Below, one piece after another: positions 19,643 through 63,999 of a DNA stretch of 64,000 nucleotides; within the stretch, counting starts at the first letter, position 1, and the number at the start of each line of letters is the position of its first letter. This DNA is from an uncultured virus (IMG/VR IMGVR_UViG_3300017721_001070). Taxonomy: Duplodnaviria > Heunggongvirae > Uroviricota > Caudoviricetes > Kyanoviridae. The notes under the pieces were generated by a model, which saw nothing but the letters and a program-made list of their open reading frames with translations, was not told where the DNA came from and did not search any database. A program made the translations under genes and the position numbers. Location: IMG/VR virus record IMGVR_UViG_3300017721_001070; one strand, given 5' to 3'.

Positions 19643-19664
19643 TAGAAGTGTTGGATATGGAAGT

Positions 19665-19720: not shown

Positions 19721-19721
19721 C

Positions 19722-41770: not shown

Positions 41771-43173
41771 CAGTATCCTCCAAAGGGATTATATTCTGTA
41801 AAATCCAATATGCTGTCTGCTTCTAGTTCAATTTCTTCATTTTGCGAATAGGCAATTTCATTACTGGGTTCTACATCATGAGAACTTATTGTCCATGATG
41901 CACCAGACTCGTCACCAGTGATGCTCTCACCAGGCGTGAAGCTTCCACTATTTATGTAAACATTTAAGAATAGATCATCTTTATCAAAGTTCTTAACTCT
42001 TGCAGTAGATCCAGATAGGGATCCTGTAATAGTTTCTCCTGCAATAAATGTTCCAATACCAATAGAGGTTGGCGGTTGAACTGTCACACTTGGGAGTGAT
42101 ACATATCCCTCACCAGCTTCACTCATTCTATAATTAGTTGTAGATCCACCAGCACCGACAGATGCTGTTGCTACAGCGGTTGTTCCTGAAACAGGACCAC
42201 TTATAGTAATTATTGGAACAGAACTGTAACCATATCCAACAAGTGCTGGAATAAAACTAGTGTCTAAACCAACACTACGAACAACACCATCACCAATTAT
42301 TGCCGTTGCTGCAGCTCCTACTCCACCACCACCTGTTATGGTTATAGTGGGAGATTGAGTGTATCCTGAACCAGCGTTGGTAATAAAAATTTCTTTAATT
42401 GCTTGTGCATCACCAACAGAAGTTGTAATTGCAACAGCAGTTGCATTTTTGCCACCACTTGGGGATGTGGAAATAGATACTACTGGTGTTGAACTGTAAT
42501 CATATCCTTGATTTATTAGATCAATACTTCTAACACCACCATCTACAATTTCACTAGCACTTGCTATAGCAGTAGCACCAACTCCAGTTAAAATTAGTTG
42601 TGTGATATAACCTTCATTAATAACTGTATTATCAATCTCATTAACAGAGGTATTGATAATTTCATCTTCGAGTTGAAAGAGTTCGCATGACAACTCAAAT
42701 ACGTAATTCTTACCTAACTGAAAAAATGGTTTTTCGTGCTCTACGAATTTAATCTCAAAAAATCTTTGACCTAATGGGAAGTAAATTAAATCACCCTCTC
42801 TTGGTCTTTGTGTTACTTCAATCTCAGAGTCCTTGAAAGTATTGAGATCTTCTAAAAATGGTTCAATGAATAACTCAAATCTTTCTTGTGAAATAATTAA
42901 ATTTACCTCATTCTTCATCTGAATGCCAAATTTTGACATAATTTCGGAGTCTTTTCCATAACCCTCAAAATTATTCAAGTAAGCTTCAATGACAAAGTTA
43001 TCATCAAATTTGGATAAGATGACTTCTCTAGAAAGTTTCTCTCTACCTAAAATTTTTCTGGGCAAGTAATAAACATCTATCCCATACATTTTTAGATGTT
43101 CGTTAATAAGATCCTGCAGCAAGTATTGCTCGTGCTGTGAACCCTGCAAAAAGAATGGATTGAGAGGTGCCAT
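41770..43173 (-). CDS. gp14: Neck protein gp14 with an inserted repeat region
   Basis: YGIDVYYLPR, SKFGI, RPREGDLIYFP, DFTEYNPFG. Confidence 0.93.
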   Translation of the reverse strand: MAPLNPFFLQGSQHEQYLLQDLINEHLKMYGIDVYYLPRKILGREKLSREVILSKFDDNFVIEAYLNNFEGYGKDSEIMSKFGIQMKNEVNLIISQERFELFIEPFLEDLNTFKDSEIEVTQRPREGDLIYFPLGQRFFEIKFVEHEKPFFQLGKNYVFELSCELFQLEDEIINTSVNEIDNTVINEGYITQLILTGVGATAIASASEIVDGGVRSIDLINQGYDYSSTPVVSISTSPSGGKNATAVAITTSVGDAQAIKEIFITNAGSGYTQSPTITITGGGGVGAAATAIIGDGVVRSVGLDTSFIPALVGYGYSSVPIITISGPVSGTTAVATASVGAGGSTTNYRMSEAGEGYVSLPSVTVQPPTSIGIGTFIAGETITGSLSGSTARVKNFDKDDLFLNVYINSGSFTPGESITGDESGASWTISSHDVEPSNEIAYSQNEEIELEADSILDFTEYNPFGGY

Positions 43174-44586: not shown

Positions 44587-44790
44587 TTATGACTTATTTA
44601 TGAGAATATTAAGTAAAGACTTGATTTCTACTATCTCGTCCTTAAGATTTTGAATCTCATTCTTAGATGATTCCCTATTTTTCTTCGCTTTGATATAATT
44701 TTCATATGCTGCATTATTTGTATTAATGACAGCATTAGAATCAGAATCCCGACATAAATCGGGATCACCATCAATCTTTATATTTTTCAT
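44587..44790 (-). CDS. Small coiled-coil hypothetical protein
   Basis: L.RD..SNAVIN, IVEIKSLL. Confidence 0.8.
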   Translation of the reverse strand: MKNIKIDGDPDLCRDSDSNAVINTNNAAYENYIKAKKNRESSKNEIQNLKDEIVEIKSLLNILINKS

Positions 44791-47700: not shown

Positions 47701-50700
47701 TGGGCAATTGCAAGTGATTCAGTATCAATGTTTAAGTATGTTGATGATGCGTTATATGACTCAGAATTTAAAAGAGAAAGTTCTCTATCATATGGATTTA
47801 CATCAAACGTTGTTATCGGTGCATCAAATGGACCATTCTTGTGATTTGGAGTACAAATTCTAAATGTAATAACTCTTATGCCATTGCTATTGAAACCATC
47901 TACGGTTTCACCAACTTGGAAAGATCCATTTACATTATTAACTTCTAATAGTTTTGGAATTACATCCAGTCTATTAGAACCGTCCATAAATGCATAATAT
48001 CTTGTAAATGGTTTTAGACCTTCACTTTTGAACTCAACGTTTCTAGATCTCATGAAAGGATCTTGAGTTTCATTAATATCAATACTGGCATCAATATTTG
48101 TTAGAGCCCTAGTCTGCCAAGTATTAGTTTGCGATGATGATGATTGTGTTCTAGTAATACCAGCAACTCTTCCTCCAGCAGGTCCACCATTACCAATACT
48201 AACGTCACCAACAGTACGAATTGTTCTTCCACTATTAATAGTTTGGAACCTTTCAACTGTGTTTTTGTTGGTATTTGTTAAGTTAGTAGTCCAAGAATCT
48301 CTTGCAGGTTCCAGTGTAATACTTCCGACCCATTCGATAATATTAAATGGGTTTACATTTTCAGTTCTGGTTGCAAATGGTTGTTGTGTTGCAAGAATCT
48401 CTTCATAATCTATACTTACAACGTTTCCAGTTTTTCTAAGATTGCCATCAAGAAGAGTGTAATCTGATCCAAAATTAAATGACTTAGCCTGTGGAACTAC
48501 ATCTGGTGCAAGTTGCGGTGTAAATGTTATTCTATCTGTCGGTGTGGACAAATGATCAATTCCAAGATCAACCTGACATGTTGTTTGTGCAAGATCTAAG
48601 AAATTGCTGCTAGTGAAATCATCTACAAAGAAACCTGTTTTAAATCTATCTAAACCATCCTTGTCAGTAATTTGTAGAGATCTTGTCTCTAACTCAAGTA
48701 GTGATAGTGAAGAAACTTCTTCCAAGTTTTGGACCCTATCTTCGATAATACCAATATCTCTCATGGTATATCTTCTATTATCAACTTGAATGATTCTTAC
48801 ATCACTCACATCATAGAGATACGCTGGGTACACGATGGTACCTAAAGTCATTGAAGGTTCAACAATAAATGGTACAGATGGTTTATCTGCAGATGTTCCT
48901 TGTATTACTTTAAATACTCCTTCTTTAGTAAGGATCAATCTATCCATTCTAGGTAGATAATAATCATATGAAATTAGAGTACTCTCATCTGGTTTTGGTA
49001 TAACAGTAGTTGTACTACCAGTAGTAGAGAAATCTCTTGAATCATAATCAAAAGGTGATGATGTTGTTGACGTGAAATTTGAAACTCTAGGTCTAAAGTC
49101 AATAGTATCAGTAACTCTTACTTCTAGACCAGATCTAGAATCTCCACTTGGTAGTTGTAATGATGGAACATCCTTTGTAAATCTATCGCCACTATATGAC
49201 AATACCGTAAATGCATCACCTTCATCAGTATCTGCAATTGTATAGTGATCATAGATTACTGTGAGGCGTTTTGCTGGCTCTGCAGAACCTCTATTCCTTA
49301 CAATTCTAGAATAATCATAGATATCTGGTCTTTGACCTTTATCCATAGTAAATTCATCTGTTCTATCAATATATAAACCACCAGTAATTCCTTGTAATCC
49401 AGCAACGATACCAGATTCTTCAAATGTAATTTGTTCTCCAGGAGCAAATCTATCTTCATTTAGATATACAACTTCAACTTCTGTACTAGAAAGTCTAGTA
49501 ACAATTTGGGCAAGAGCCCTGTTGTTAGGACCACTAATTTTTTCACCTAAAACGGAATTTGTATTTAATGTTATACCACTCTCAAAGGTGAGTTTATCTA
49601 AGACTGGATCCGCTGAATTTGTAGATTCAAATACACCCAAGACTTTGACAACATCTGGTCTGTTTAGTGAAATCTCTTCATCTTCTACTCTTAAACCATA
49701 GAATGAATTAAAATCAAGTCCATTTGAAGTATTGGACGAAATACCAGCCGTTCTAAATTTTGACTTATCTATAGTTACTTTTGTACTTCTAGTATAAATT
49801 TTTACCTTAGATCTTAAACCTTGCTTTTTGATTGTTGTAATTAGTGTTACATTACTTTGATTTGCAGTTAGACCTTCAATTGTAATAGAATTTCCATCAG
49901 AACCTATAGTAAATTGATCTCCAGTAAGATTTTCAATTGACCCATCAGAATAATGAAGTGAATATCTTTCAGAATCAAATGTTTCAAATACAGAACTAGT
50001 AATTCCTGATATTGCATCTACAGTTGTCGTCAACTTACCAAAAGCATCTGTGGAAAGGCTATCAATCTGCTTATAGATTGGTAAATTAGCCTTACTAAGA
50101 TTTACTGATGCAATATTTCTATTTGATAGTGGAACAACTAAAGATCCTTGGGTATCTCCAAAAATAAATTCTGCAGAAGTTGCTCTAAAATCAACTTCAA
50201 TGGTTGAACCAGGAAGAGATCCTTTATTAACACTACTAATATTGGGAACAGACACAACAGTCATAGTGTTGCCATCTGAAGAAACTTCAGTTACTCTATT
50301 ATATGAAACATCAGTATGTGCTGGATTTTGATATTGAATAATGGTATTAGTAGCAATTCCAGTAAATTTACGACCTGCAGATGTTACTGATCCACCAGAA
50401 GTAATTTGTATCTTATCTGTAATACCAAACCCATTTGCAACTCTAGTTATTAATGAAACATCAGCAACAAAATCTGATGCTAAACCTAAAGTTGATGCGT
50501 CTTGATATACAGATTTTACATCGTTTAGAGAATATGTTTTAATATCTCTAATGGATCTATTATATTCTGTGATTCCATCAATTGAAATTTGCTCGCCTTC
50601 TTGGAACTTGCCAGCAACTTGATGTAAGGTTACTGTAGTTCCACTAGAATATGCTTCAGCAGCATATCCAATAGCTCCACTACTTAGACCTTTAAAGTAA

Positions 50701-52148
50701 GTTCCCTTAGAGAAAGAATATTGCTGATTTAATGTGAACTGAGTATAAGTCTGAATATCAAATAGTCTTAGATCCCAAAGGGTTGCGTCACCTTTGTATG
50801 AATCGTCAGTGACACCAAAAGAATATACTCTTGCTTCTCCAATTTTTTCCCCAGTTCCTGCAGTATTGCTATTAGTTCTTTGATCATATAATTCCACTAC
50901 GTGAGTAGAATCTTTGTTTAAACCAATTACTGGAGTACCAAAAACATTATTGACCCTTAAAACATTTCCCATTGAGAAGGGAACTAAAGATGTAGGGACA
51001 TTATTAGTATCTCTTGGTTTGGGCAAATCAATAATTCTTGTCCCTGTTACCTGAACATCATATCCTTTAACATATGCCTTTCCTGGACCAATCTGCAAAC
51101 ATGCAATATCTTCAGATGGAATAGCACCATCTCTAGTTATTTGATCACTACCAAAAATACCATTATTGTTTTGCTCATCGTTTAAACTCTCTTCAACGTT
51201 AAAGTTAAATGGAGTTACTACATAATCTCCAGATTCCTCAAAAGTTCTTTTCGCAAAATAATCTCTTAGATGATCATATTCGTTTTTTCGTTGAAGTTTT
51301 ACAATCTCGCCGTCAATGATACGAAGTAATTCTACAAAAGTTTTATCGTCAATATCATCAATATCTTTCTTTACTAATTTTAATTCAAACTTAAATCTAT
51401 CGGCACCAGGAGCTGAGAAATTATTAAATCCCCTTGCATTGTCATATAGACTAGTGTCTTCACTAGAATTTACACTGGTCTCAATAATGTTTAGACCAAC
51501 TCTATATGTTGGGGTATTTGAATATTGATCTAGAAGAATACTCTGCTTTTCAACTCGTGCAAAGTATCCTCTGACAAAATAAATACCATCATCAATATTA
51601 ATAGCAGATCCAATTGCTGTAGCATTCTGAGGAATTACCTGAGAAAAAGAAGATCCTGCATCGATGGTGGTGTTTCCATAAATGACAGTTTCATCTGCAA
51701 TTAAAAGTTCACCATCTTCAAATGCAGTAAATTCTTGGTTAATTGCAGAATTTAAATACTTAACATAGATGGTAAGATCTCCTGTTTCGGAGTCATTTGC
51801 GGATAGAATTTTTGAAACTGTTGCAGTAACTTGTGAATTTTGACCCCTAATTCTTTTCCCTACAAACTGGTCAATGTAAGTAGATACCGATAGTCCTAAG
51901 AAATTTGCATTTATTTTGACTGCATAATAATCTTCATCATAAGTAATTCCACCAGGAATTACTACTGCACCATCTTTAAAAAAGTGATCGGCAAAACTTT
52001 CAATCTGCCCCTGCAGCATAGTCTGGAGACTATTTAATTCCCTGGCTTGTATTGGGAATCCAGGTTTAAATAAAACCTTGTAATAATCACTATCAGAATT
52101 AAAATCGTCAAAATATGGTGAGACGTTTAAATTAGTCTTTTGGGGCAT
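44790..52148 (-). CDS. Large virion structural protein (VrlC / DUF4815-like)
   Basis: NLNVSPYFDDF, QAREL, APGADR, RYTMRDIG, FFVDDF, NVNPF, DPLAQTF, EDLKF. Confidence 0.9.
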   Translation of the reverse strand: MPQKTNLNVSPYFDDFNSDSDYYKVLFKPGFPIQARELNSLQTMLQGQIESFADHFFKDGAVVIPGGITYDEDYYAVKINANFLGLSVSTYIDQFVGKRIRGQNSQVTATVSKILSANDSETGDLTIYVKYLNSAINQEFTAFEDGELLIADETVIYGNTTIDAGSSFSQVIPQNATAIGSAINIDDGIYFVRGYFARVEKQSILLDQYSNTPTYRVGLNIIETSVNSSEDTSLYDNARGFNNFSAPGADRFKFELKLVKKDIDDIDDKTFVELLRIIDGEIVKLQRKNEYDHLRDYFAKRTFEESGDYVVTPFNFNVEESLNDEQNNNGIFGSDQITRDGAIPSEDIACLQIGPGKAYVKGYDVQVTGTRIIDLPKPRDTNNVPTSLVPFSMGNVLRVNNVFGTPVIGLNKDSTHVVELYDQRTNSNTAGTGEKIGEARVYSFGVTDDSYKGDATLWDLRLFDIQTYTQFTLNQQYSFSKGTYFKGLSSGAIGYAAEAYSSGTTVTLHQVAGKFQEGEQISIDGITEYNRSIRDIKTYSLNDVKSVYQDASTLGLASDFVADVSLITRVANGFGITDKIQITSGGSVTSAGRKFTGIATNTIIQYQNPAHTDVSYNRVTEVSSDGNTMTVVSVPNISSVNKGSLPGSTIEVDFRATSAEFIFGDTQGSLVVPLSNRNIASVNLSKANLPIYKQIDSLSTDAFGKLTTTVDAISGITSSVFETFDSERYSLHYSDGSIENLTGDQFTIGSDGNSITIEGLTANQSNVTLITTIKKQGLRSKVKIYTRSTKVTIDKSKFRTAGISSNTSNGLDFNSFYGLRVEDEEISLNRPDVVKVLGVFESTNSADPVLDKLTFESGITLNTNSVLGEKISGPNNRALAQIVTRLSSTEVEVVYLNEDRFAPGEQITFEESGIVAGLQGITGGLYIDRTDEFTMDKGQRPDIYDYSRIVRNRGSAEPAKRLTVIYDHYTIADTDEGDAFTVLSYSGDRFTKDVPSLQLPSGDSRSGLEVRVTDTIDFRPRVSNFTSTTSSPFDYDSRDFSTTGSTTTVIPKPDESTLISYDYYLPRMDRLILTKEGVFKVIQGTSADKPSVPFIVEPSMTLGTIVYPAYLYDVSDVRIIQVDNRRYTMRDIGIIEDRVQNLEEVSSLSLLELETRSLQITDKDGLDRFKTGFFVDDFTSSNFLDLAQTTCQVDLGIDHLSTPTDRITFTPQLAPDVVPQAKSFNFGSDYTLLDGNLRKTGNVVSIDYEEILATQQPFATRTENVNPFNIIEWVGSITLEPARDSWTTNLTNTNKNTVERFQTINSGRTIRTVGDVSIGNGGPAGGRVAGITRTQSSSSQTNTWQTRALTNIDASIDINETQDPFMRSRNVEFKSEGLKPFTRYYAFMDGSNRLDVIPKLLEVNNVNGSFQVGETVDGFNSNGIRVITFRICTPNHKNGPFDAPITTFDVNPYDRELSLLNSESYNASSTYLNIDTESLAIAQQGSFFGRLVADMTFIGQTSNAQADLNFVRLVSDSFGSVYGSFFFRDPEGSPRFRTGTRTFKLTTSPTDAISIVGDLTNSDAEAAFTGTGITRRTTLNLQQTAMTTTRRDTTTTITNNLQFRFAPPPPPVIIRRTIDRTRTIVRNRTIVRNNTIVRRVERRDPLAQTFLTDNKGYFLTSVDIFMFTKDERTPLTVEIRTVELGTPTLFLASEESQIVLPPSQVNVSDDGSVATRVTFKSPVPLLPETEYAIVLLSPTSDNYTAWIARLGERTVNTAELPGPESVLYTQQYGAGSLFKSQNGSTWTPTQFEDLKFTVNKCEFAHRTGTATFFNPDLSFDSDILPLLPNNPIKSLPRKLKVGITTVETTDMQEILTPGRKVGYGETGSEAALTAFIENVGGPVANLAVSLVGTGYSNGTYNNVNFFSLTGSGSGAVGVVTISSSGLSAVSITTPGEGFLVGETLGIQTSDVTKGIGANFTVTNITGFDTLYTTNVQGENFSQDDPLVYYDGATKVSVGDTVIRSSTLTSQIYSGNIIEVLHPSHGMHGITNTIDIKNIFPTTSPTTLSADITATDNTISIANTSVFATSLGVSTDAGFALIGNEVVYYNSIGSGTLGISTRGAEGSSSARHTNGTEIRPYEFNGMSLVSINNQIDMPSDTTLQANKGIDTYYLEIDRRDRQTGENQVNFTDERVAGGKNVWVSRNLQFDRITPRFDIVTPNDTSTQARIRTISGRSAGGTETSFEDLGFTTSELNSTLLYPTPRLVASKVNETKNLDDLPRNKSLTIEVDLVSEDPNYSPFIYLDNCSIDIDRSRLNKPVDDYTTDGRVNSTNQDPHSSIYVSQRVNLQNASTSLKVLTSAYIDSTADMRVLYRLFLPDSADVEPTYELFPGFDNMNDTDDDGFGDSIINPAKNSGKSDAFVSPSAFDQFKEYQFTSKDLPAFTGYQIKIVFSGTNESFAPRLNDIRAIALA

Positions 52149-52152
52149 TTTC

Positions 52153-53715
52153 TTAGAATTCCAGTACTACTTTGATATCTTCTTTTTGGCGAGCATTTCT
52201 CGCTACAGTTGGGCGATTATCAAGATAAATTATTTCACCTGACCTCTTATTTATCTGAGGTTGAGCGACTCCATCTGCGAAGTTTACACCTAGATTTATT
52301 GTAGTATCAGCAATGACTGTAGTGATTCCACTAAATGTAGAATCGACAGATGCCGAGAAACCACCAGTAGAATTTACATTTTCAGATGACGACTCAAATT
52401 TCACAACTCTTGCTTCAGAAGAAACTCCAACATAGTCCCTCTGATCACCCGATGTTTTATTGAAATATAGTGATCTATCTTGAGTGTACTTAACTACATT
52501 AGTTTGTTCGTCAAATGAAACCACATAACCAGTGGCTGTAGTTGTTCCTACCACTTGCTTAATCTGATCTCCAACAGTCAAGCTTCCAGTAACATTTACC
52601 AATTTGAGAGCATCAACTAATGAAAAGTTATTATCTTTATAGACACTAGTTGATCCCAAAGAAGTTGGATTTTTTACAATACCAATTTGTGCGAATTGTG
52701 TATCTGTTGGGAAGTTTGCCGTACTATCATCAAATCTTGTGTATAGGAGAACTTTTTCTGCTCCTAATTCCTTATACAAATCATACCCATGACCCTTTGA
52801 GGGTGGAATGATTGGAATTAGTGTAGCAAGTTCCGAAATACTACCAGACTGAATTGGTCCTAAATCAACAATACCATAACTATAACCTTTTCCACCAGAA
52901 GAGACTTGAGCGGTTACAATCCTACCACTACTATCTGTAGAAATAATAGCCTTTCCACCCTCACCATCTCCTAAAATATCAACCTCAATATCAAGACCTA
53001 GACCATATCCAAATCCAGACCTCTCAATGCTAATATGCTTTAATTGGTTTTCATTGATATCCGAATTTCCAGCAGATCTAACAGCTTGAATCTGAGAATC
53101 TGTAGAACCTAACCAATTTGATGGTAGAGTGATATATTCAGTAGAATCAAATTTGATAATATCTGCTGGGTTAACAGTAAATAGATATTTCCAAATATAA
53201 CCATCTCCACTCTCACCAGCTCTAGTTGGTTCTAAATCTGTGAATCCTGGTTCGTCCTGAGAGGCATTACCAATCAAGTTTGAATATGTAGATCCATTAT
53301 CAATACAAATATAAACTCTATATTCAGCGTTCATTACAAAATATCTAGCATCATATAAACGTGTAGATCCAGTTACTGGAGAAACGTTATTAATGCTATA
53401 GTCATGTCTGTATTTTTCATAAATTGTTCCTTGAGTCCAGTCAACTCGTTTTACAATTCTTCTAACATTTGAGTTGGTAACTTTCCTACCAAACATTGTA
53501 GTATCATAAACATGATTTGAATAATTGTTATTATCAATCGGACTGGGAGCACCAGCTGCATTAGTATTCCAATCTGCAGTTCTACCAAATCCAACCGATA
53601 ATGAAGGATTTGGTAGGGACGTAAAGATATAGTAAGAGTTATTGGAATTCTCTACAGACTCAATAAAGTTATTGACATTCAATATTCTAAATTGGTCCGT
53701 TACAATAGAAGCCAT
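52153..53715 (-). CDS. gp8: Baseplate wedge subunit gp8
   Basis: VTDQFRI, VYICIDN, DGYIWKYLFT, SGEIIYLDNR, EDIKVVLEF. Confidence 0.92.
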   Translation of the reverse strand: MASIVTDQFRILNVNNFIESVENSNNSYYIFTSLPNPSLSVGFGRTADWNTNAAGAPSPIDNNNYSNHVYDTTMFGRKVTNSNVRRIVKRVDWTQGTIYEKYRHDYSINNVSPVTGSTRLYDARYFVMNAEYRVYICIDNGSTYSNLIGNASQDEPGFTDLEPTRAGESGDGYIWKYLFTVNPADIIKFDSTEYITLPSNWLGSTDSQIQAVRSAGNSDINENQLKHISIERSGFGYGLGLDIEVDILGDGEGGKAIISTDSSGRIVTAQVSSGGKGYSYGIVDLGPIQSGSISELATLIPIIPPSKGHGYDLYKELGAEKVLLYTRFDDSTANFPTDTQFAQIGIVKNPTSLGSTSVYKDNNFSLVDALKLVNVTGSLTVGDQIKQVVGTTTATGYVVSFDEQTNVVKYTQDRSLYFNKTSGDQRDYVGVSSEARVVKFESSSENVNSTGGFSASVDSTFSGITTVIADTTINLGVNFADGVAQPQINKRSGEIIYLDNRPTVARNARQKEDIKVVLEF

Positions 53716-53754: not shown

Positions 53755-56700
53755 TTAGATGAATACCTTCTTGGATATATTTCCAGTATTCCGTAATCCA
53801 AAACCTTTTCTGGTTACAGTTGGGTACGTACTCAGACCAACGTCATATGTATTTCCGTTGGGTTCAAATGATAATGCACCCTCAACTCTATTGAAGCTGC
53901 TCAGTTTGCCCCAAGAGAATTCACCAACATAATCTCCGTTTGAAGAAATGCCAGATGTAATAGTATCAGACTTGATATTGGATGTTATGACACCAACATT
54001 ACCATTAAATGAAATGCTACTTACATAATAGATGTTATCAACAATTGTGCTGATGCCCACAATTTCAGAGTCAGAACTGTCAACTGATGTGATTCCTGTT
54101 CCAACAACAGTGGTATTTTGAACCACGATTGGATACCCAACTAATAAAGTTTGTAGTAGAGCTGGACTACCAGATTTGGATAGATCCAATTCAAACTTCA
54201 TTGCGAGAGGGTGTCCAGAAATTCCAGTGGTTGTTCCAATACCTGTGATAATACCAGAATAACCTAGGATAACTTCTGCTTCTTTAATTGTATCTTTGAT
54301 TGGTTTTGCAAGTTCAACAATTACTTGTGGAACATTTGTATGTGTGTAACCAAATCCAGGTTCATCGATTGTAACACTGGTCAATTGACCACCAGAAGCA
54401 GTTCCAGTCAATTCTGCGGTACCACCAATACCAATGATGTTGAATAGTGAATTATCAACCTTTTTAGGTGCTTGAATCTTAATTTCAATTGCACCATCAG
54501 GATAACCAGAACCACCATTAACAATTGTAATTTCACTAATTGTTCCAGCAGCAGAAACGGTAGCAGTAGCAGCTGCTGCAACTACATTTTGATATCCAAT
54601 AATGTCTGCATCACAAACAACTTCTGCTAGATTTGCTCCAGGTGCATTTTCTTCATACTGGAAGAAGTCTGCATTGTCAAGGAATATTTCAGTATCGCTA
54701 GAACTAAAGTTTTTAATTACCTTAGCAACTGGCATAATCTGCGCTTCAAGCGAATCGCGAATTTTAGTAATCTTCTCTTCAAAGATAACCAAATCTCTCT
54801 TTTGCTTAGTTACATCAATTGGTCTGAATATATTTTCATTAATGCCCTGATTTCTATAGATGTTTGTTTCTACTTTTTCGGATTCAACAATAGCACTTAG
54901 AACTCTATCATTTTGTTCAAAAATTGAGCTAGGACGATCACCTTTCAGTCTTAATATGTCACCAGCTTTTAGTGATTCAAAGACAGTAACAATCTTACTA
55001 TCAACATCCTTAGTTCCTCTATAGAAATAGATGGCAATATTATCAGATTTGAGTGGTGCAGCCGTAAAGTTGAAATTGAAACTTGTACCACCAGAGAAGA
55101 AGTAATCTTTCCCAGGAGTTTGTATCACGCCGTTCACAAATACTAGAAGAACAGCATCAAGATCAATTAGTGCTGATTGTGGATTTTGCTCATCCTTCTG
55201 GAAACTGAGACTAGCTCCATTCAAATTTAGAGGGAATCTAGTTCTCACACCATTTTGCAGAGAACTAATTGAGTCAATATAGTCAACTTGTCCGAAGTTC
55301 CAAGAAGAGAATGTATCATTTGAAATTTCAGTAACTTCAAAGATCATGTCAGTAAAGATAGTTCCCACTCCAGTAGCAGTAACTAAACCGACTGGTTTGA
55401 ACTTATCACCACGTCTAAATCCAAATCCAGTATCAGCAAGTCTAAATCCACTAGCTTCAAACACTGTCGAACCAATACCTGTTGTTGTAGAAGCAGAAAC
55501 AATAACATTAAGTTTCGCAGCGAATCCAGAATCAGTTGTTTCGCCAACAGCAACACGAGATACACCCACTACAGGCATTTCAGAGTAATTTGGATCTTCA
55601 ATATTAATTGTTGGAGATGTATAACCTGTTCCAGCGTTAGTAATTGAGAAGATCGCTGTTCCACCTAAACCTGCAGTAGCAGTGATTGATGCATTAGTTC
55701 CTTCATGACCAACTTCTTCAATATCTACGTTAATTGCACCAAAATAACCAGATCCAAACGTTAGACCAGAATAATATTCGGCCGCTTCTCCACTAGGAAC
55801 ACCTCTTCTTCTGCTAGGAACATATGTATGTGCAAAACCAACTTTCAATACATCAACTTCAAATTTATTATCATCTATAATTGTTCTGATGGAATATGGG
55901 TTGGCATACTTAACACCAAATACAACACCATGATCATCATAGATATGGTCAATTGTGGAAACTCCTACATTAGTGATAATTTGATTAGGAGCAGGAAGAC
56001 CAAAGATCTTGAATTCAGATCCTTGAGTTCCATCTGGGAAAATTGAAGTTGTGATGCCAATTCTAACCTTACCAGTTCCAGAAACATAATCGTGAGCAAT
56101 TGTAGAAATACCTACGTTTGTAACGATTGATGTTCCAGAACTTCCAGCATTAACATTAAAGTAGAAACCTTGAGTTCCATCTGGGAATATAGTTGTTGTC
56201 ACGCCTGCATGAGGAGCTGCACATGAGAATTCAATATCGCGAAGCATTACCAAATCACCATCACTTAAACCATGATTATCTGCTGTTAGGATTGTACTAA
56301 CGCCAGTTGATGCAGTGTAATCAAAGTCATAGATAGCAATCTCATTACCATATGCAAGACAAGTCATTGCAATTCCAGAGAGATTAATTACATCTCCAAT
56401 GGCAAGACCACTGTAATTTTTCTTAGTAGTAATAGTTGAGAAACCAGTTGTCTTATCATATTCAAAATTAGAGATTGCGAAAGGAATACCTCTATTGTCT
56501 GGGAATCTAGTGGTCGTGAATCCAGTCTCAACAACACCTCCACTATGAGCAACATAAGTGTGTGCAAATCCAACTGGTAGAGCATTTACTGAGAAGTTCT
56601 TAGAGTCGATTACTTTTCCAACTTTATAACCACCAACAAATTTGACACCTTGGGCAACACCATTAGCTGAATAAGTATGTGCAATTGTGGAAGGACCAAC

Positions 56701-59700
56701 GTTAATCTTAATCTCAGTTCCAGAAGGAACATCTAGAACTTCAAACTCATCAATAATTGTGTCTGGGAAGATGGTTGTAGTTACTCCAGAGTGCTCTGAG
56801 GAACATGTAAATTCAATATCCTTAAGTCTTACAAACTCACCAGTAGTAATATTGTGAGTCTTTCTGGTTGCGATTGTGCTAACACCAGTTGCTTCAGTAT
56901 AATCGAATCCAGAAATTGCCCATTCAATTCCAAGATCACTTGGGAATACGTTAGTCGTAATACCAGTTTCAACGTTTCCACCACTATAAGCAATGTATGT
57001 GTGAGCAAATCCAACAGTTGGAATCTGAGCTTCAAACTCAGTAGTGGAGTTGACCTTGGTTACATTGAATCCTTCATCATATTGAACTTCAGATAGGATA
57101 CCATGTGCGGAATATGTATGGGCGATAGTTGAGATGCCAACGTTGACATTGATTGTAGAAGCGCCAACACCAGTTACCTTAAAGGTATCTCCTTGGGTAC
57201 CATCAGGGAAGATAGTTGTTGTTACACCAGCATGTTCTGAAGAACATATAAATTCAATATCTTCTAGTTTGATATCTGTACCAACTGAAATTTCATGATT
57301 TCCAGATAGTGTGATTATGCTTGATCCACTGTTCTCAGTATATTCAAAGTTGACAATTGCAAACTGCTTACCTTCAGAACTTGGGAAGACATTAGTAGTA
57401 ACACCAGACTGAACAAGACCACCACTTACATATGTGTGAGCAAATCCAACAGTGTCTATCTGAGCCGTAAACTCTGTACCAGATCCTACATTTGTGACTG
57501 TGTATCCCTCAAGATACTTAACACCAGAGACAAAACCACCACTATCATAAGTATGTGCAATGGTAGAAATACCAACGTTGACTTTTAGTTCAGTTGCAGA
57601 GGGAACTGATAGAACTTCATATTCAAATCCTTGAGTGCCATCAGGGAATGTTGTTGTAGTAACGCCAGCGTGCTCTACATCACATGTAAACTCAATGTTT
57701 CTAATATCAACTGTTTCTCCAATAGTTATGTTGTGGTTTCTGTTGACGGTAATTGTACCAACACCAGTAGACTCGGTATAATCAAATCCAGTAATTCCAT
57801 ATTGAATTCCAGCTTTGCTTGGGAACTTAGTTGTTGTGATTCCAGTTTCAACTGTTCCACCACCAATTGGAATATGTGGAATAGTCGTTATACCGACCTG
57901 AGTAGTGAACTGAGTGGCGCTTAGAGTAGACTCTACGGTATTGAAGATTCTACCATTTGTGCCATCGGGGAAAATAGTTGTAGTGACACCAGCATGTTCT
58001 TCTGTACATGCAAATTCAAGATCAGCCAATCTCAAGGACATTCCTTTATTGAGAAGATGATTGGTGCTTGTAGTGACAGTTAGGATACCAGAAACATGAT
58101 CATACTCAGTACTGGAGATTCCCAATTGGGTGTCAAATCCCTTCTGACACTCCATTTCAAGATCATAGAACTTGACCTTCATATTTCTGTTTAGTTCGTG
58201 ATCACCGATTGTGGAAACAGTGATAATACCAGAAACATTATCATAATCTGCTGTGTAGATTCCAACCGTAGGTAAGAATTCTTTAGTACATTCAAACTTC
58301 AGGTCATGGAACTTGACCTTCATATTTCTATTCAGGTCATGTGCAGAACTTGTAGTTACAGTAATGATTCCAGAGAGATGATCGTAACTAGCAGTAGAAA
58401 CTCCAAGTAGATTGTCAAATCCTTTAGTACACTCAAACTTGAGATCTCTGAACTTAACTTCCATATCTTTGTTCAGGAAGTGATCTGTCTTCGTCGTGAC
58501 AGTCATAATGCCTGATACATTATCATAATCTAGTGCAGAAACACCGACCAGACTGTCATATCCACTTGTACAATCAAATTCAATATCTCTCATAGAAACA
58601 AAGTCGCCAATCTTGAAACCATGTGCATTTTCAGTTGTTACTGTTCCAATACCAGAAGATTGGGTATAGTCGAAGTTTGTGATTGTGCTGTAAGTTCCTA
58701 CAGTTTCAACACCAACAACGGTTGTAATGGATCCAGAGGCATCTACATCTACAATAACCTTAGCACCAACCAAAGGTGCTATTCCTGTACCACCAGTGTA
58801 TGCCAGAGAAACAATAATACCACCCTTAGGAAGCTGGTTTGCGTTAACATCATCAAATGATAGATATGGATCACCAGTAATTAACTTTGTACCACTAAAT
58901 TGTAGATTTACACCCTCAGAATCTGTTTCTAGAGAATACACATTAAGTGGGTTGTTATCAGTAGTTTGTCCTTGATGAATACCATTGATGAATACCACAC
59001 CACTTCCAGATGCAGTTTCTAATCCAACTGGCCTATTTCCTCCAGAAGTTAATCTAAATGTCTGTGCAATTCCAGTAAATTGTGTGGATACATCATCATA
59101 GATTTCATTTAGACTATAATCTTGCTTTAGATAAACTCTTCCGCTGAAAGAAGATCTTGTATAGAATAGATTTCTATCATCGGTTAAGAAGTCAGCACCA
59201 GCACCTTTTGGCGGATCAGTAAAGTGAATTGTTGATTGGATAATATTATAAGCACCTCTAAACAACTCAACATCTGCACCATGTGAATACAAATCAACAA
59301 CTTTCGTTCCTAGAGCAGCTCTATCCACATTAACAACATTAAATGTCCCAACACCAGAGATTGGACCTACATTAGATGAAGCCGCACCAATGTTGCGAAC
59401 TTTCATAAATTCATCATCAATTTTTAACAAATCTCCAGGAACAATAGTAGAAATTCCAGAAATTGCAAAGAATGTTCTGGAAGATCCAACTTCTTCTTTC
59501 GTCTGATAAACAATGTTTGTACTTGAAACAGGATCCTGAATAATACCATCAATAGTAATAAACGTTTTGGATAGTTTCTTAGTAGTCTCAATTGTGTGAG
59601 CATTTCCACCACCAGTAGCAGTAATTGCCGCACCAATTTTTCTAGCAGCAAAATCTTTCTTAGTTGCAAACTTAATAGTGTTTGGATCAACAACAATTGC

Positions 59701-62700
59701 AAAGAGTTGACTTGGTAGAATATTTGTACTAATTCCAGTTGTATAATTCTGTCCTACGGTACTTGCAAGAGCCACTTGAGACATTGAAACTGCAATTCCA
59801 AGACGCTCAGAATAATATGTACTTCCAACGCCAACAGGCAAATTATTGTCTACAGTAATAGAATTAATACCAATTGATGTGATTGTTCCAAAACCAGTTT
59901 CAGTATCAAGTTCTCTAATAGTATCTCCAATTGCCAAGACAGATGTATTTGCTACTCCACTAATAATCTTGCCACCATCAGTATCCCCAAAGAAGAATCT
60001 GAAAGAAGATCCAATACTAACAATAGTAGTTCCTGTAGAAACAGTAACACCAATAATTTCATCTCCAACATTTATATTTAAATCTGTGCTTGCAGCAGAA
60101 ACTATCTTAGAGTTAATTACAGAGTCGCCAATGAATTCTGATCCACCAGCAAGTGTATTTGCAATACCAATAGATTCAGAATTGACACCAATAATTGATG
60201 ATGCTGCAGTGTAAATAATTTCCTGTGTATTGAACAGGAAGTGGTTGGGAATATTAAGTTCTCCAGTTGATAGATCTAAAATTGAACTATTAGTTGGATT
60301 GAAAGATCTAGCAAAAATTAGATCACCATTGTGCTTGAGATCAAAATCTAACTTATCATTTGGAGTATATACAGCTTGTGCAAGATCGTTAATTGATACT
60401 CCATATGGGAAATCTGGAATAGCAGCAATATTTGTATCTTGTTCTTTATAGATAATTTCACTATATTGAGAAATCTTAATGTTTTCTCCATTGTACTTAC
60501 TATCGGGAATGAATAGTAAGTTTGCAAAAGGACCATTAAATTCACCACTAAAAGTACCAAGACCAATTGGTGTATTGACTCCAGTCTGTGCATATTCAAG
60601 AATCATTGTATCTACAAGACCATTATCCTGAGAGAATAGGACTTGACTCATAGAAATAGTTTCTCCAATTGCAACTCTAACAACAGATTTAGCGTATCTA
60701 TCAATTAGTGTTGATAATCCGACAACAGTAATACCATAACCAGCAGATGTTTCTTCAATTTTGTTGGACTCAACTCTTGCAGTTCTTTCAGATCCATCAT
60801 CCTGACCAGCAAGTTTGATGTGATAAGAAGAAAGACCAACATTTGAATTCTGCAATCCAACAACATTGAATTTAATTTGTGTTGTTTGTGCAGTATTATT
60901 ATGGAAATCAATCGCTAAAGTATCATTAGCAACTACATCAGTTTTTAGATATGCTCCAAAAGTACCGATAGCTCCAAATGATAATCTCTCCCTGTCATCA
61001 GAACTGAATCCATATTCAGACATATGAACATTTGTTCCATCGTTAATAACAGTTAGCTCAGAATAACTCAGTTCATTTGTAGTTGTATTTTTAATTTCAG
61101 CATATACCATTAAGGCATCATATTCAGAAGAACCTACTCCAATAATTGTAGTAGTTATGCCCGTAAGAACTGGTTTTGTAATTCCAAATAGTTCAGTATC
61201 ACCAACACTAAATGATCCAATTCCACTTGTTCTAGAGTCAAACAGTTGTCTGAAAACTTTAATGTTATATGTTTTGGTTGGATTTGATGGTGTAAATCTA
61301 ACTTTTAAATCAATAGATATACTATCATAAATTGATGTAATCTCACCGATAGTTTCTTCCTCTTCAGGAATGAGTGGTAATACTCCAGAGGACTTAATCC
61401 TAGACTTTTCTAAGATGAATGAATTTTCATTACCATCATTAGTTACAATAACTTCATGAATTTCATAATGTGTTGGATCTAGTACATCAGTAACTAAAAT
61501 ATAAAGTTTAGATGTTCCCGCAATTGGTGGAAATACCAAAATATCTTTAAATGAACCTTGAAGGTTTTCACTATCAACGAATTCAGTACTAATATCATCA
61601 ATTGTTAGAACTCTATTTGTAATACACTCAATATAAGAAGATAGTTTTTTAGAACCAAATTTGATTGAACTTGTGGTACCTTCAGCTACATCGGTATCAA
61701 CAGCAAAGTCAAAATTTCTCAGTGTAGTAGTATTTGTTTCACTAATATAATCAAGGATAATATTTTGGGTTGTCGTATCTTTATAATCAGGAATAACTCC
61801 TACAGACTCAATCAACGTATTGGCAAAATTCTTTGTACCTGCAATATGAGTTAGTCTGTTTACAGGACCACTAAACTCAGTAAACTCTAAAGGACTACTA
61901 ATAGAATAAGATAACTTTTGATAGTAATCATTGTCAGGTATTACCTGATAATCAGTGTTAAGGAATCCAATCTCATCATCCCATCCAAAGTTTTGATTAA
62001 TGCCATAATCAACGTCATAAGAACCTTCAAATCTATTAATATTTTTAATATTTGCCCTTGTACCAGAAACTGAACCAAAGATCCTATCACCAGACTCTAA
62101 TACATAATCGCCAAAAGTTTTTAAAACATTTCCTTCAGATTTTGTTACAATTAGATCAGTGTCTACAAAATTTGCAGATAGTGGAGTCTTTACTTGCAGT
62201 CTCTCATTGATGGTAAAATTATCTGGTTCGATCGAAACTTCAAATGTTGGATAGTTTTCAAATTTAGAAACATTTCCAAAAATAACGTCAGTTACAGCGA
62301 TACCAGCATTAGTTGTAAAGTCTTGAAGACTATATGTTAGAGTTGATGGATTAATACCGCCATTAAAACTCTGCACCTCAAAGAATGTGAATCCATAATC
62401 TTTAGAGTTGAATCCATCACCAACACTTCCAAATGTCTGAAGACCATCAATAAAGATTTTGTCTCCAGCCTTAAATGGTGACGTTGTGAATCCAAGAACA
62501 GGAGTTCTCAATGTTACAGTTACAATACCCGTATTAACACTGTCAACCTCAGTGATAGAAATTCCATTACTATTTGAAATACTATAAACACTATGTCCAA
62601 CACCAGCTAGTCCAGAAGGTGTGCTTACAATTTCTACAGTCTCAATGGATCCAGAACTTAATTTTGCGATAATTTCTGCATCTTCAACTTCTGTTTTAGT

Positions 62701-63999
62701 TACTGAATTTACTAGTACTAAATCTGGAGGAGTAATAAAGTTTTGACCGCCATATACAGTCTTAATTTCTTTTACTTTATTGGAATTGCTAACATCATAA
62801 TATGTTGGAATATCTGCAACAGGTTTTAGTGTTTTATCTTGAGAGAAATCAAATCCTGGTTTTTCAATAACAACAGACTGTAAAGCTCCAATAGTCTTAG
62901 ACTCCGCAAATACCTCAGCGTTTACTCCTTCTTCACTTCTAATTGAAGTGATACCAGGTATTCTCTTATAAGAATCTCCTGCAGAAAGAATTCTAACATT
63001 TGAAATGCCACCGTTAGATGTTTTAGATCTAGTAGTATAGGATAGCACTTCACACTCAGTTTTTGCATAAGAAACCCTTTCTGGAGTTTGCTGTAGAGAA
63101 ACTGTAAATGATGTTGTAGAAGCTGCTGCACCAATAACCTTTGTTTTAATATTATAGTTACTATCAATAAATGAAATCTTAGAATAGTTCTTTGATGCAA
63201 AATCTGGTTCAATAAGATCGCCTTTCTTAATATTGTAGAAGAGTTCGTTGGGTAGATCTTCAGTAAATTGTACGGTAAATGTGGCAGTAGTTCCTAATCC
63301 AACAGTTCCATTTCTGGTAACCTGGAATATATCGGTATTACCTGTACCAATAAATTCAGTTCTAAATGACTGATCTAGATATAGATCAAAATCATAGTTA
63401 AACAAAGATTGATGTGACAAATCAAATTTTATATTGTTATTCCTAACAATTCTCAAGTTTGGATTTATCTTGGCAATCGTATGTGAAGTTCCTCCAATTG
63501 AAGTGAAGGATACGGTTTTAATAGTTTTACCTTCTAGATCTTTCTTGGTTTCAACTAAGGAGAAATTATTTTTGTCAATTGAGTATACAAAGTACTTTCC
63601 AGTTGAAAATCCAGCTGGTAGTTCAGAGGAATTGTAGTAGACCAGATCTCCAGTCTCAAAACCATGATTATTAATGGTGAATTTTGAGCTAGAAATTCCA
63701 ACTGAAGAAGAAGTGAATCCTACTGGATCAATAATGATGTTCTGAATATCTTCTTGGAATTGAACCCTAATTTCAGTTGATGTTCCAATACCAACTGTTA
63801 GGTTTGGTTTTACTTGGAGAGTGACATCATCACCAAGGGATAATCCATGACGTGATGCTCCATTAATTGTTGCAGAAAGTCTAGAAACATCTCCCCTAAC
63901 TTGTAGAGGTTGTGTTGTGAGTTTATATTGATAATTATCACTTCCAAAGTTGTGGAACGCTAATTCTTCGCCGTTAATTTCTGTTTTAATACCAATTAA
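53755..63999 (-). CDS. gp7: Giant baseplate wedge initiator gp7-like protein (5'-partial, over 3400 aa in window)
   Basis: DNDYYQKLSYSI..HIAGTKNF motif; directly upstream of gp8; the frame is open from 63999 (checked manually), so the TTG at 63456 is not the start. Confidence 0.85.
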   Translation of the reverse strand, partial: LIGIKTEINGEELAFHNFGSDNYQYKLTTQPLQVRGDVSRLSATINGASRHGLSLGDDVTLQVKPNLTVGIGTSTEIRVQFQEDIQNIIIDPVGFTSSSVGISSSKFTINNHGFETGDLVYYNSSELPAGFSTGKYFVYSIDKNNFSLVETKKDLEGKTIKTVSFTSIGGTSHTIAKINPNLRIVRNNNIKFDLSHQSLFNYDFDLYLDQSFRTEFIGTGNTDIFQVTRNGTVGLGTTATFTVQFTEDLPNELFYNIKKGDLIEPDFASKNYSKISFIDSNYNIKTKVIGAAASTTSFTVSLQQTPERVSYAKTECEVLSYTTRSKTSNGGISNVRILSAGDSYKRIPGITSIRSEEGVNAEVFAESKTIGALQSVVIEKPGFDFSQDKTLKPVADIPTYYDVSNSNKVKEIKTVYGGQNFITPPDLVLVNSVTKTEVEDAEIIAKLSSGSIETVEIVSTPSGLAGVGHSVYSISNSNGISITEVDSVNTGIVTVTLRTPVLGFTTSPFKAGDKIFIDGLQTFGSVGDGFNSKDYGFTFFEVQSFNGGINPSTLTYSLQDFTTNAGIAVTDVIFGNVSKFENYPTFEVSIEPDNFTINERLQVKTPLSANFVDTDLIVTKSEGNVLKTFGDYVLESGDRIFGSVSGTRANIKNINRFEGSYDVDYGINQNFGWDDEIGFLNTDYQVIPDNDYYQKLSYSISSPLEFTEFSGPVNRLTHIAGTKNFANTLIESVGVIPDYKDTTTQNIILDYISETNTTTLRNFDFAVDTDVAEGTTSSIKFGSKKLSSYIECITNRVLTIDDISTEFVDSENLQGSFKDILVFPPIAGTSKLYILVTDVLDPTHYEIHEVIVTNDGNENSFILEKSRIKSSGVLPLIPEEEETIGEITSIYDSISIDLKVRFTPSNPTKTYNIKVFRQLFDSRTSGIGSFSVGDTELFGITKPVLTGITTTIIGVGSSEYDALMVYAEIKNTTTNELSYSELTVINDGTNVHMSEYGFSSDDRERLSFGAIGTFGAYLKTDVVANDTLAIDFHNNTAQTTQIKFNVVGLQNSNVGLSSYHIKLAGQDDGSERTARVESNKIEETSAGYGITVVGLSTLIDRYAKSVVRVAIGETISMSQVLFSQDNGLVDTMILEYAQTGVNTPIGLGTFSGEFNGPFANLLFIPDSKYNGENIKISQYSEIIYKEQDTNIAAIPDFPYGVSINDLAQAVYTPNDKLDFDLKHNGDLIFARSFNPTNSSILDLSTGELNIPNHFLFNTQEIIYTAASSIIGVNSESIGIANTLAGGSEFIGDSVINSKIVSAASTDLNINVGDEIIGVTVSTGTTIVSIGSSFRFFFGDTDGGKIISGVANTSVLAIGDTIRELDTETGFGTITSIGINSITVDNNLPVGVGSTYYSERLGIAVSMSQVALASTVGQNYTTGISTNILPSQLFAIVVDPNTIKFATKKDFAARKIGAAITATGGGNAHTIETTKKLSKTFITIDGIIQDPVSSTNIVYQTKEEVGSSRTFFAISGISTIVPGDLLKIDDEFMKVRNIGAASSNVGPISGVGTFNVVNVDRAALGTKVVDLYSHGADVELFRGAYNIIQSTIHFTDPPKGAGADFLTDDRNLFYTRSSFSGRVYLKQDYSLNEIYDDVSTQFTGIAQTFRLTSGGNRPVGLETASGSGVVFINGIHQGQTTDNNPLNVYSLETDSEGVNLQFSGTKLITGDPYLSFDDVNANQLPKGGIIVSLAYTGGTGIAPLVGAKVIVDVDASGSITTVVGVETVGTYSTITNFDYTQSSGIGTVTTENAHGFKIGDFVSMRDIEFDCTSGYDSLVGVSALDYDNVSGIMTVTTKTDHFLNKDMEVKFRDLKFECTKGFDNLLGVSTASYDHLSGIITVTTSSAHDLNRNMKVKFHDLKFECTKEFLPTVGIYTADYDNVSGIITVSTIGDHELNRNMKVKFYDLEMECQKGFDTQLGISSTEYDHVSGILTVTTSTNHLLNKGMSLRLADLEFACTEEHAGVTTTIFPDGTNGRIFNTVESTLSATQFTTQVGITTIPHIPIGGGTVETGITTTKFPSKAGIQYGITGFDYTESTGVGTITVNRNHNITIGETVDIRNIEFTCDVEHAGVTTTTFPDGTQGFEYEVLSVPSATELKVNVGISTIAHTYDSGGFVSGVKYLEGYTVTNVGSGTEFTAQIDTVGFAHTYVSGGLVQSGVTTNVFPSSEGKQFAIVNFEYTENSGSSIITLSGNHEISVGTDIKLEDIEFICSSEHAGVTTTIFPDGTQGDTFKVTGVGASTINVNVGISTIAHTYSAHGILSEVQYDEGFNVTKVNSTTEFEAQIPTVGFAHTYIAYSGGNVETGITTNVFPSDLGIEWAISGFDYTEATGVSTIATRKTHNITTGEFVRLKDIEFTCSSEHSGVTTTIFPDTIIDEFEVLDVPSGTEIKINVGPSTIAHTYSANGVAQGVKFVGGYKVGKVIDSKNFSVNALPVGFAHTYVAHSGGVVETGFTTTRFPDNRGIPFAISNFEYDKTTGFSTITTKKNYSGLAIGDVINLSGIAMTCLAYGNEIAIYDFDYTASTGVSTILTADNHGLSDGDLVMLRDIEFSCAAPHAGVTTTIFPDGTQGFYFNVNAGSSGTSIVTNVGISTIAHDYVSGTGKVRIGITTSIFPDGTQGSEFKIFGLPAPNQIITNVGVSTIDHIYDDHGVVFGVKYANPYSIRTIIDDNKFEVDVLKVGFAHTYVPSRRRGVPSGEAAEYYSGLTFGSGYFGAINVDIEEVGHEGTNASITATAGLGGTAIFSITNAGTGYTSPTINIEDPNYSEMPVVGVSRVAVGETTDSGFAAKLNVIVSASTTTGIGSTVFEASGFRLADTGFGFRRGDKFKPVGLVTATGVGTIFTDMIFEVTEISNDTFSSWNFGQVDYIDSISSLQNGVRTRFPLNLNGASLSFQKDEQNPQSALIDLDAVLLVFVNGVIQTPGKDYFFSGGTSFNFNFTAAPLKSDNIAIYFYRGTKDVDSKIVTVFESLKAGDILRLKGDRPSSIFEQNDRVLSAIVESEKVETNIYRNQGINENIFRPIDVTKQKRDLVIFEEKITKIRDSLEAQIMPVAKVIKNFSSSDTEIFLDNADFFQYEENAPGANLAEVVCDADIIGYQNVVAAAATATVSAAGTISEITIVNGGSGYPDGAIEIKIQAPKKVDNSLFNIIGIGGTAELTGTASGGQLTSVTIDEPGFGYTHTNVPQVIVELAKPIKDTIKEAEVILGYSGIITGIGTTTGISGHPLAMKFELDLSKSGSPALLQTLLVGYPIVVQNTTVVGTGITSVDSSDSEIVGISTIVDNIYYVSSISFNGNVGVITSNIKSDTITSGISSNGDYVGEFSWGKLSSFNRVEGALSFEPNGNTYDVGLSTYPTVTRKGFGLRNTGNISKKVFI
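55810..58690 (-). repeat. Array of 10 N-half and 10 C-half protein repeats within gp7
   Basis: N-half Y..-.G..T.TT...H....G..V....(I/L).F.C x10; C-half F.V.......F...(VG.STI/VGF)AH.Y..G x10. Confidence 0.9.

Follow-up and report, generated by a model that had tools for sequence, protein, structure and literature searches.

Domain insertion is usually one level deep, and E1 carries its FCCH domain as an insertion. Among 2.7 million classified domains, the extreme according to the available part of a 2026 survey (PMC13114784) is Si3 of the cyanobacterial RNA polymerase, whose eight domains form a 6-level recursive architecture; in Si3, the accessible sections of a second paper report, HABAS domains are inserted into HABAS domains (PMC11515920). 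FCCH-like barrels have been described in excerpts of a third source as tail-tube decorations on siphophages (gp39/gp13; PMC13576161). Here we describe an array in a 64,000-nucleotide stretch of DNA, hereafter the window, from an uncultured virus of the Kyanoviridae (IMG/VR IMGVR_UViG_3300017721_001070). A segment of its giant gp7-like baseplate wedge protein is likely to consist of ten barrels of about 90 amino acids, of the E1-FCCH/endosialidase type, joined by recursive domain insertion and not head to tail, a statement that concerns topology and fold, not function.

The array occupies residues 1776–2734 of the protein, a 959-residue stretch (window 55798–58674, minus strand, as for all coordinates of array elements below; 55810–58690, residues 1770–2730, in a preliminary description). 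Regular expressions and direct reading of the translation reproduced the two half-motifs of that description, A and B, in ten copies each and in the order AAAAABABBABBABBAABBB. The A halves start at residues 1776, 1823, 1870, 1917, 1964, 2072, 2218, 2365, 2512 and 2559, and the VG..H.Y cores of the B halves lie at residues 2035, 2142, 2184, 2287, 2329, 2434, 2476, 2629, 2678 and 2720. A third element, M (G[VIF]TT..FP), earlier counted as part of the contiguous leaf units, is also present in ten copies, and with it the order reads AAAAAMBMAMBBMAMBBMAMBBMAAMBMBB. One unit is an A half of three strands ending in an almost invariant Cys, an M loop G-V/I-T-T-x-x-F-P, and a B half of three strands with an almost invariant His. 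The whole string parses as balanced parentheses, as had been proposed, and does so also under the stricter rule U → A [U] M [U] B, which gives each A a single M and a single B at the same depth as itself. The distinct subtype of closing halves noted earlier is likewise present, with B3, B5, B7 and B10 all containing VGFAHTY and preceded by GVKY, EVQY, GVKF and GVKY, respectively. Hidden Markov models (HMMs) built from the ten copies gave no further match in the 3414 residues of the protein nor in window open reading frames (ORFs) of at least 300 residues. Balance alone carries little weight, as simple arithmetic makes 1 in 11 arrangements of ten A and ten B balanced; the weight of the pattern comes from the three-symbol grammar, with one M per A/B pair at equal depth, and from the relatives.

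In the proposed parse, a whole unit could be inserted at either of two points, the loop between A and M (loop 1) or the loop between M and B (loop 2). U1 would then be A1 [U2] M8 [U9] B10, U2 would be A2 [U3] M6 [U8] B7, U3 would be A3 [U4] M4 [U7] B5, U4 would be A4 [U5] M2 [U6] B3 and U9 would be A9 [U10] M10 B9, with U5, U6, U7, U8 and U10 as contiguous leaves. Starting from the amino-terminal side, the array begins with the putative opening halves of the four outer units, A1 (residues 1776–1810, window 58570–58674), A2 (1823–1857, 58429–58533), A3 (1870–1904, 58288–58392) and A4 (1917–1951, 58147–58251). These lead to leaf U5 (A5-M1-B1; 1964–2051, 57847–58110), which would sit in loop 1 of U4 at the tip of a stalk. 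U4 would be completed by M2 (2052–2062, 57814–57846), leaf U6 in loop 2 (A6-M3-B2; 2072–2159, 57523–57786) and the closing half B3 (2160–2197, 57409–57522), and U3 by M4 (2198–2208, 57376–57408), leaf U7 in loop 2 (A7-M5-B4; 2218–2304, 57088–57348) and B5 (2305–2344, 56968–57087). One level further out, U2 would end with M6 (2345–2355, 56935–56967), leaf U8 in loop 2 (A8-M7-B6; 2365–2451, 56647–56907) and B7 (2452–2491, 56527–56646). The outermost unit would continue with M8 (2492–2502, 56494–56526) and hold in its loop 2 the side branch U9, made of A9 (2512–2547, 56359–56466), leaf U10 in loop 1 (A10-M9-B8; 2559–2646, 56062–56325), M10 (2647–2657, 56029–56061) and B9 (2660–2695, 55915–56022), before closing with B10 (2696–2734, 55798–55914), after which a conserved flank, ..FGSGY, follows. 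This order supports a stalk five units deep, four nodes of which carry a side branch (two units long in one case), and we infer the complete three-dimensional tree from it.

Relatives hold 1, 2, 3, 4, 5, 6, 7, 10 or 12 units at the gp7 site, and their A and B counts move together. A search with residues 1770–2740 found 263 proteins, and the homologue counts given here come from the 120 listed. Among these we picked 42 gp7-type proteins, which have the array at the same place and mostly a PF14240 domain, excluding the 4000-residue proteins of the ACG-2014f type and more divergent proteins. With HMMs built from the window alone, A and B counts are equal in 37 of the 42, and all 37 are balanced, in more than ten different shapes of 3, 4, 5, 6, 7, 10 or 12 units. 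Examples are AAMBMAMBB (3 units), AAMBMAAMBMBB (4), AAAMBMAMBBMAMBB (5) and AAAMBMAMBBMAAMBMBB (6); in the 12-unit form, three side leaves have turned into two-unit branches. The scan of gp7 homologues with separate half models, which the preliminary description had proposed as a check, yielded many other balanced trees. Iterated HMMs across the 120 listed homologues give equal counts in 69 and a difference of at most one in 103 (Pearson r 0.994). Distant gp7 proteins have one contiguous unit at the same site (P0202, P0203, P0215 and P0238) or two, arranged as A M [AMB] B (P0151), and these one- and two-unit sites share the flanks of the window array, including the downstream ..FGSGY... Long-gap global alignment of the one-unit homologues to the window hops between paralogous units, and only the flanks are informative.

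Close relatives also bear on which halves pair. A MAFFT alignment of the window array with eight loci from viral contigs shows, in six 5- and 6-unit relatives, two separate gaps, one covering A3 and A4 (the 6-unit relatives lack both) and the other, 180 residues on, covering M2-U6-B3-M4-U7-B5. This concerted indel supports nesting because the missing arms and closers are those paired by the nested parse. The side branch provides a second case: in the window, U9 is split by a complete U10, and in the 5-unit relatives, which lack U10, it is a contiguous 91-residue domain. The A9 and B9 halves of the window are 88% (L022) and 87% (L026) identical to that contiguous unit, and the extra ~97 residues amount to one unit, U10. 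A survey covered 213 non-redundant units from 41 gp7-type homologues. There, 20 of 22 units that open with an A9-like arm close with a B9-like half (11 of the 20 being split and 9 contiguous), and 27 of 39 units with an A1-like arm close with a B10-like half. Of the partners predicted earlier for the stalk, A1 with B10 is thus upheld, and A2 with B7, A3 with B5 and A4 with B3 are not individually assignable by sequence; the pairing at levels 2 and 3, that of A3 with B5 included, would follow from non-crossing order and elimination. Tandem Repeats Finder detected no tandem repeats in the DNA and the layers are only 54–64% identical as protein (57–64% among the A2–A4 arms, 54–59% among the three M-leaf-B blocks), so the copies are old. 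The closest layer pairs, A2 and A4 among the arms and layers 4 and 2 among the closer blocks, are concordant, but agreement has a 1-in-3 chance and we did not use it as evidence.

The unit is not confined to gp7. The leaf profile retrieved 353 family representatives at E ≤ 0.001, 211 of them at E ≤ 1e-10, and 144 of the 150 listed are new. A second family consists of ~4000-residue 'hypothetical proteins' (P0006–P0030) made almost wholly of A-M-B units and encoded directly upstream of the baseplate wedge gene, with loci at L003:7702–19605 (ACG-2014f, YP_009134476) and L005:7837–20343 (S-CAM7, YP_009323182). These proteins hold 30–33 A and 30–33 B halves, mostly balanced, and reach depth 8 by token counting; one 31/31 string occurs in ten proteins. 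Proteins resembling tail fibres, with Mtd_N at the N terminus and a Peptidase_S74 chaperone domain at the C terminus (P0103, P0116, P0117, P0121 and P0089) carry the units as a flat tandem, AMBAMBAMB, or with a single nesting, and this flat tandem use indicates that A-M-B is one autonomous domain. In S-SSM7 (L007, NC_015287), two ~3000-residue ORFs labelled gp7 (673–9696 and 10762–19767) flank a gp9-like connector gene, and the second has the unbalanced string ABBAAAAAAAAABB under the window-only HMMs, probably reflecting divergent subtypes. One variant unit, in which C..D.....H.YPR replaces G.TT..FP, was seen in P0146 (4764 residues) at residues ~835–1170 and also in P0255 and P0176. In P0146 it comprises A-half triplets at 75–88-residue spacing, then runs of 'HTFVSA'-like strands, and a third insertion point could lie just before the last strand of this variant.

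To characterize the fold, the U4 block, A4 [U5] M2 [U6] B3 (290 residues, window 57406–58275), was modelled with AlphaFold2 from a ten-sequence alignment of orthologous blocks. The model is all-beta, with a mean predicted local distance difference test score (pLDDT) of 75 and a predicted template modelling score (pTM) of 0.64, and contains three similar barrels, at model residues 47–147 (U5), 156–255 (U6) and 1–290. VIA structure matches spanning residues 1–290 include 4p22_B (E1 FCCH; Z 9.4, root-mean-square deviation (rmsd) 2.1, 76 aligned), 4hiz_A (phi92 endosialidase; Z 8.6) and 3gvj_A (endosialidase NF; Z 8.6, rmsd 2.2, 78 aligned), and because its matches have this span, the third barrel combines the first A of the block with the last B. 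The top three among 48,161 PDB representatives were 4p22_B and 4hiz_A, both over 1–290, and the UBA1 FCCH, over 49–147. When the Foldseek top-1000 chains were rescored, 53 chains had Z ≥ 8, and nearly all were E1 FCCH domains or endosialidase barrels; 6dc6_A superposed best (Z 10.0, rmsd 2.0, 78 aligned), and the leaves match the same templates at Z 9–10. At the confidence of this predicted model, the unit is a six-stranded closed barrel superposable on solved FCCH domains. The Pfam E1_FCCH profile (PF16190) scores 31.5 bits on the 973-residue array, against a cut-off of 29.5 (E 1.9e-7), with profile positions 3–28 of 70, an A half, as the best stretch. A 101-residue piece cut across units (window 57703–58005) matched no Pfam family at E ≤ 1, and neither the protein nor the leaf profile found a sequence match in the PDB. 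The nearest named cluster in the ESM-Atlas, 'E1 FCCH domain-containing protein' with virus members (score 0.90), is a lead only.

Several observations weigh against a fully nested array. Counts are unequal in 5 of the 42 close homologues with the window-only HMMs and in 51 of the 120 overall with the iterated ones, and balance holds in just 59 of the 144 family representatives (nested in 33, flat in 26), many of the others being fragments. Strings of A halves occur in P0146 (19 A, 0 B), P0255 (7/0) and P0176 (12/1), with an A spacing of 75–88 residues, which suggests whole domains of the divergent subtype with the 'H.YPR' middle, whose B half the HMM would have missed. In the homologue survey, stalk-type arms have a closer of the B3/B5/B7 type in 26 of 51 units and one of the exact predicted layer in 10 of 51; exact partners among layers 2–4 are not resolvable from sequence, and two scoring schemes give different answers as to whether B7 or B3 is the nearer relative of the second-layer closer in 6-unit forms. 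Structural prediction has gaps of its own. The preliminary description had asked for a predicted structure of the ~960-residue segment, and of this check only the U4 block gave a result, a closed outer barrel: AlphaFold2 failed on the whole array (973 residues, nine-sequence alignment; pLDDT 41, pTM 0.21), so that there is no three-dimensional model with all five levels. VIA recognized in that failed model only leaf U10 (residues 781–883, Z ≤ 7.8) and weak rows at 722–918 (Z 5.3–5.8), which were not used. For the U4 model, VIA reports only the first and last aligned residue, with no residue map, and what the model shows is that a barrel can be closed by halves lying apart in the chain; it does not establish A4 and B3 as partners in the full chain, because they are the sole unpaired halves there. 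Foldseek of the U4 model against the PDB gave no match at E ≤ 0.001, FCCH chains appearing at E ~0.01 with probability 1.00. A complex prediction of the A1 arm with M8-U9-B10, run without controls, scored 0.11 and 0.23, where the mark is 0.32, and speaks neither for nor against the pairing.

Some of these points would suit a different origin, in which the segment holds two independent tandem arrays: A arms with a 47-residue period forming an autonomous hairpin or solenoid stalk, and separate M-leaf-B blocks of ~147 residues, where every leaf would carry the extra B as a small appendage, with no pairing of A and B across the chain. The arms and the blocks are each internally similar, at the identities given above, and each could expand by tandem duplication; the earlier statement that simple tandem duplication does not produce this order was too strong, as two coordinated tandem expansions, of the 47-residue arm and of the ~147-residue block, would. 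An excess of A over B in some family members also fits. Yet the counts of A and B co-vary over 3 to 12 units and again at 30–33 in the second family, U9 is a single contiguous domain in orthologues, the two ends of U4 come together as a barrel in the AlphaFold2 model, and the A arm matches only positions 3–28 of the 70-position FCCH profile, half a domain. We rejected an A-only solenoid on these grounds and regard two separate arrays as very improbable.

A subtler alternative keeps the barrels and changes the partners, with halves pairing in a crossed or strand-swapped order, or between neighbouring gp7 copies, instead of last-in-first-out within one chain. The unassignable partners in layers 2–4 (10 of 51 exact) and the uninformative whole-array model leave room for this, and in Si3, according to the available text, recursively inserted HABAS domains sometimes swap secondary-structure elements (PMC11515920). 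Set against it are the consistency of A1/B10 and A9/B9 across homologues, a concerted indel that takes exactly the arms and closers paired by nesting, and a U4 model that is a monomer with pTM 0.64; crossed pairing would also need chains threaded through one another. We consider it unlikely. That the motifs are a product of chance or of motif calling in a low-complexity structural protein rich in Thr, Gly and Val has practically no credence left: the 1-in-11 frequency of balanced orders is what can be said for it, and it is refuted by the clustering of all 30 elements within one 959-residue stretch with none elsewhere in the 3414 residues, by near-invariant residues across 1447 A and 1407 B halves, by a leaf profile that finds 211 family representatives at E ≤ 1e-10, and by an AlphaFold2 model with a pLDDT of 75. 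The nested reading, a small beta domain with two permissive loops and copies inserted into copies as first suggested, holds up in the five-level grammar, the co-varying counts, the concerted layer indel, the presence and absence of U10 in a split or contiguous U9, and the fit of the U4 model, which gives one level in three dimensions.

If the ends of each barrel lie close together, a whole unit would fit either of the two surface loops. The chain would then run outward via four half-barrels to the tip, U5, and return through one side barrel and one barrel closure per level, adding the two-barrel branch of U9 with U10 before U1 is closed. The product would be a rigid-jointed branched structure at the periphery of the baseplate wedge, to which each gp7 copy contributes ten barrels, five in the stalk and five at its sides. 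Folding would proceed inside out, starting from the contiguous leaves, and length and valency may be tuned between phages by the gain or loss of whole layers or leaves.

The Cys is present in 96% and the His in 73% of 1447 A halves, and the B-half His is present in 97% of 1407 copies. The near-invariant Cys, His and M loop mark a functional or structural site, and residue conservation is the basis for a putative metal site. The M loops (HAGVTTTxFPDGT) are invariant among orthologues, yet they are the sole long stretches of the U4 model with pLDDT below 50 (model residues 95–110, 147–155 and 203–215). Low confidence at invariant loops is often found when a model omits a ligand, metal or partner. 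The endoNF barrel bears a sialic-acid binding site. Given the likeness to endosialidase barrels and the rapid variation in unit number, the array may be a multivalent adhesion or spacing module, probably directed at glycans, a function that we find quite conceivable without favouring it.

The array-bearing ORF lies on the minus strand at 53755–63999 and is 5′-open at the window end, encoding more than 3414 residues (P0001); its full-length form in the protein collection, P0002, has 5136 residues and is 100% identical. It matches PHROG 2885, 'baseplate wedge subunit', at E = 0. Directly downstream is a gp8-like baseplate wedge gene (52153–53715, minus strand; Pfam Phage-Gp8 E 1.2e-15, PHROG 438), and the remaining window is a T4-like cyanomyovirus module with neck, terminase, sheath, tube, portal, protease, scaffold, capsid, helicase and DNA polymerase genes. 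The family profile and the adjacency to gp8, within a structural module that has neck, sheath, tube, portal and capsid genes in order, support the identity of the protein as a T4-type gp7. Its closest phage-database relatives are Synechococcus phages S-T4 and Sf-CH5, whose orthologues are annotated 'baseplate wedge subunit'. Pfam found zero families at E ≤ 0.01 on the whole 3414 residues, and phmmer of these residues against all PDB chains, the T4 gp7 chain included, found nothing at E ≤ 0.01; the fold outside the array was not compared. Directly downstream of the gp8 gene lies a gene for a 2452-residue DUF4815 protein (PHROG 358, window 44790–52148, minus strand), the orthologues of which in S-T4 and Sf-CH5 carry the annotation 'virulence-associated VriC protein'. 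A gp14-like neck protein (window 41770–43173, minus strand; PHROG 460, head closure Hc2) has an extra region at residues ~196–365 that matches baseplate wedge and tail-fibre profiles, including PHROG 2885 at positions 1030–1134, and this seems to be a decoration domain common to the neck protein and gp7.

Relative to T4 gp7, the window protein has the same PHROG baseplate wedge annotation and the gp7–gp8 gene order seen in annotated cyanophage records, but at 5136 residues it is ~5 times longer, and no counterpart of the nested array was found in T4. The literature searched, which did not extend to subscription-only papers, held no account of nested arrays in cyanophage gp7. Linear domain annotation misreads such proteins, and Pfam sees half-domains only. 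At one site, nature has provided a series of 1 to 12 units whose close relatives differ by whole layers or leaves, a tractable system for studying the folding of discontinuous domains, nested evolution without orphan half-domains, and the tuning by phages of the reach and valency of a baseplate appendage. A cultured relative, Synechococcus phage S-T4, which has a 6-unit array and infects host WH7803, makes the baseplate imageable. A broader proposal, which we advance tentatively and hold to be rather doubtful as a whole, is that marine cyanomyoviruses carry 'grammar-built' virion proteins, in which a recursive two-loop FCCH-like barrel would give branched, tree-shaped appendages of tunable size that evolve by intercalation of whole layers, fold from the inside out and serve on the baseplate as multivalent glycan-binding antennae with a part in setting host range.

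Among known folds, the closest is that of the E1 FCCH domain (PF16190; 4p22, 6dc6 and 7sol), a six-stranded closed barrel to which each modelled barrel compares at Z 9.2–10.0 and rmsd 2.0–2.1 over 76–79 aligned residues. The sequence identity is 13–22%, only the phage family has the M loop G-V-T-T-T-x-F-P-D-G and the Cys/His pattern, and there is no link to ubiquitin chemistry. The phage endosialidase barrel (phi92 4hiz, residues 256–340; K1F endoNF 1v0e/3gvj/3ju4, residues 424–510) has the same fold (Z 8.3–9.4) and is likewise an inserted domain in a phage host-recognition protein, but it is a single insertion in a propeller and not self-nested, and no sequence similarity was detected. The siphophage gp39/gp13 decorations share with the array an FCCH-like barrel as an outward-facing tail decoration, but, as far as the available excerpts go, have one terminal copy per subunit and no insertion architecture (PMC13576161).

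The closest architecture is that of Si3, in the RNA polymerase beta' subunit (rpoC2), where the HABAS domain is a sandwich-barrel hybrid motif. We considered HABAS membership of the phage unit and set it aside as improbable. The VIA matches listed are FCCH, endosialidase and reductase/EF-Tu-type barrels, with no hybrid-motif or RNA polymerase chains among them, although this listing alone is no exclusion. Phage, virus, baseplate and FCCH go unmentioned in the available part of the domain survey (PMC13114784). In both systems, copies of a small beta domain are inserted at successive levels into domains of the same family, and nodes bifurcate, one host carrying more than one insertion. The fold differs, an FCCH/endosialidase-type closed barrel here as opposed to the hybrid motif, as does the host, a virion baseplate protein here as opposed to the trigger loop of an enzyme. 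The phage array works like Si3 but is no member of the Si3 system; it is a second, independent and more regular example of recursive insertion, in a different fold and in a virion protein. Unlike Si3, it follows a fixed grammar of three parts, takes insertions at two defined loops and varies from 1 to 12 units among close relatives, and by token counts its sister family reaches 30–33 units and depth 8, which, if true, would exceed the six-level extreme reported in the available part of the 2.7 million-domain survey (PMC13114784).

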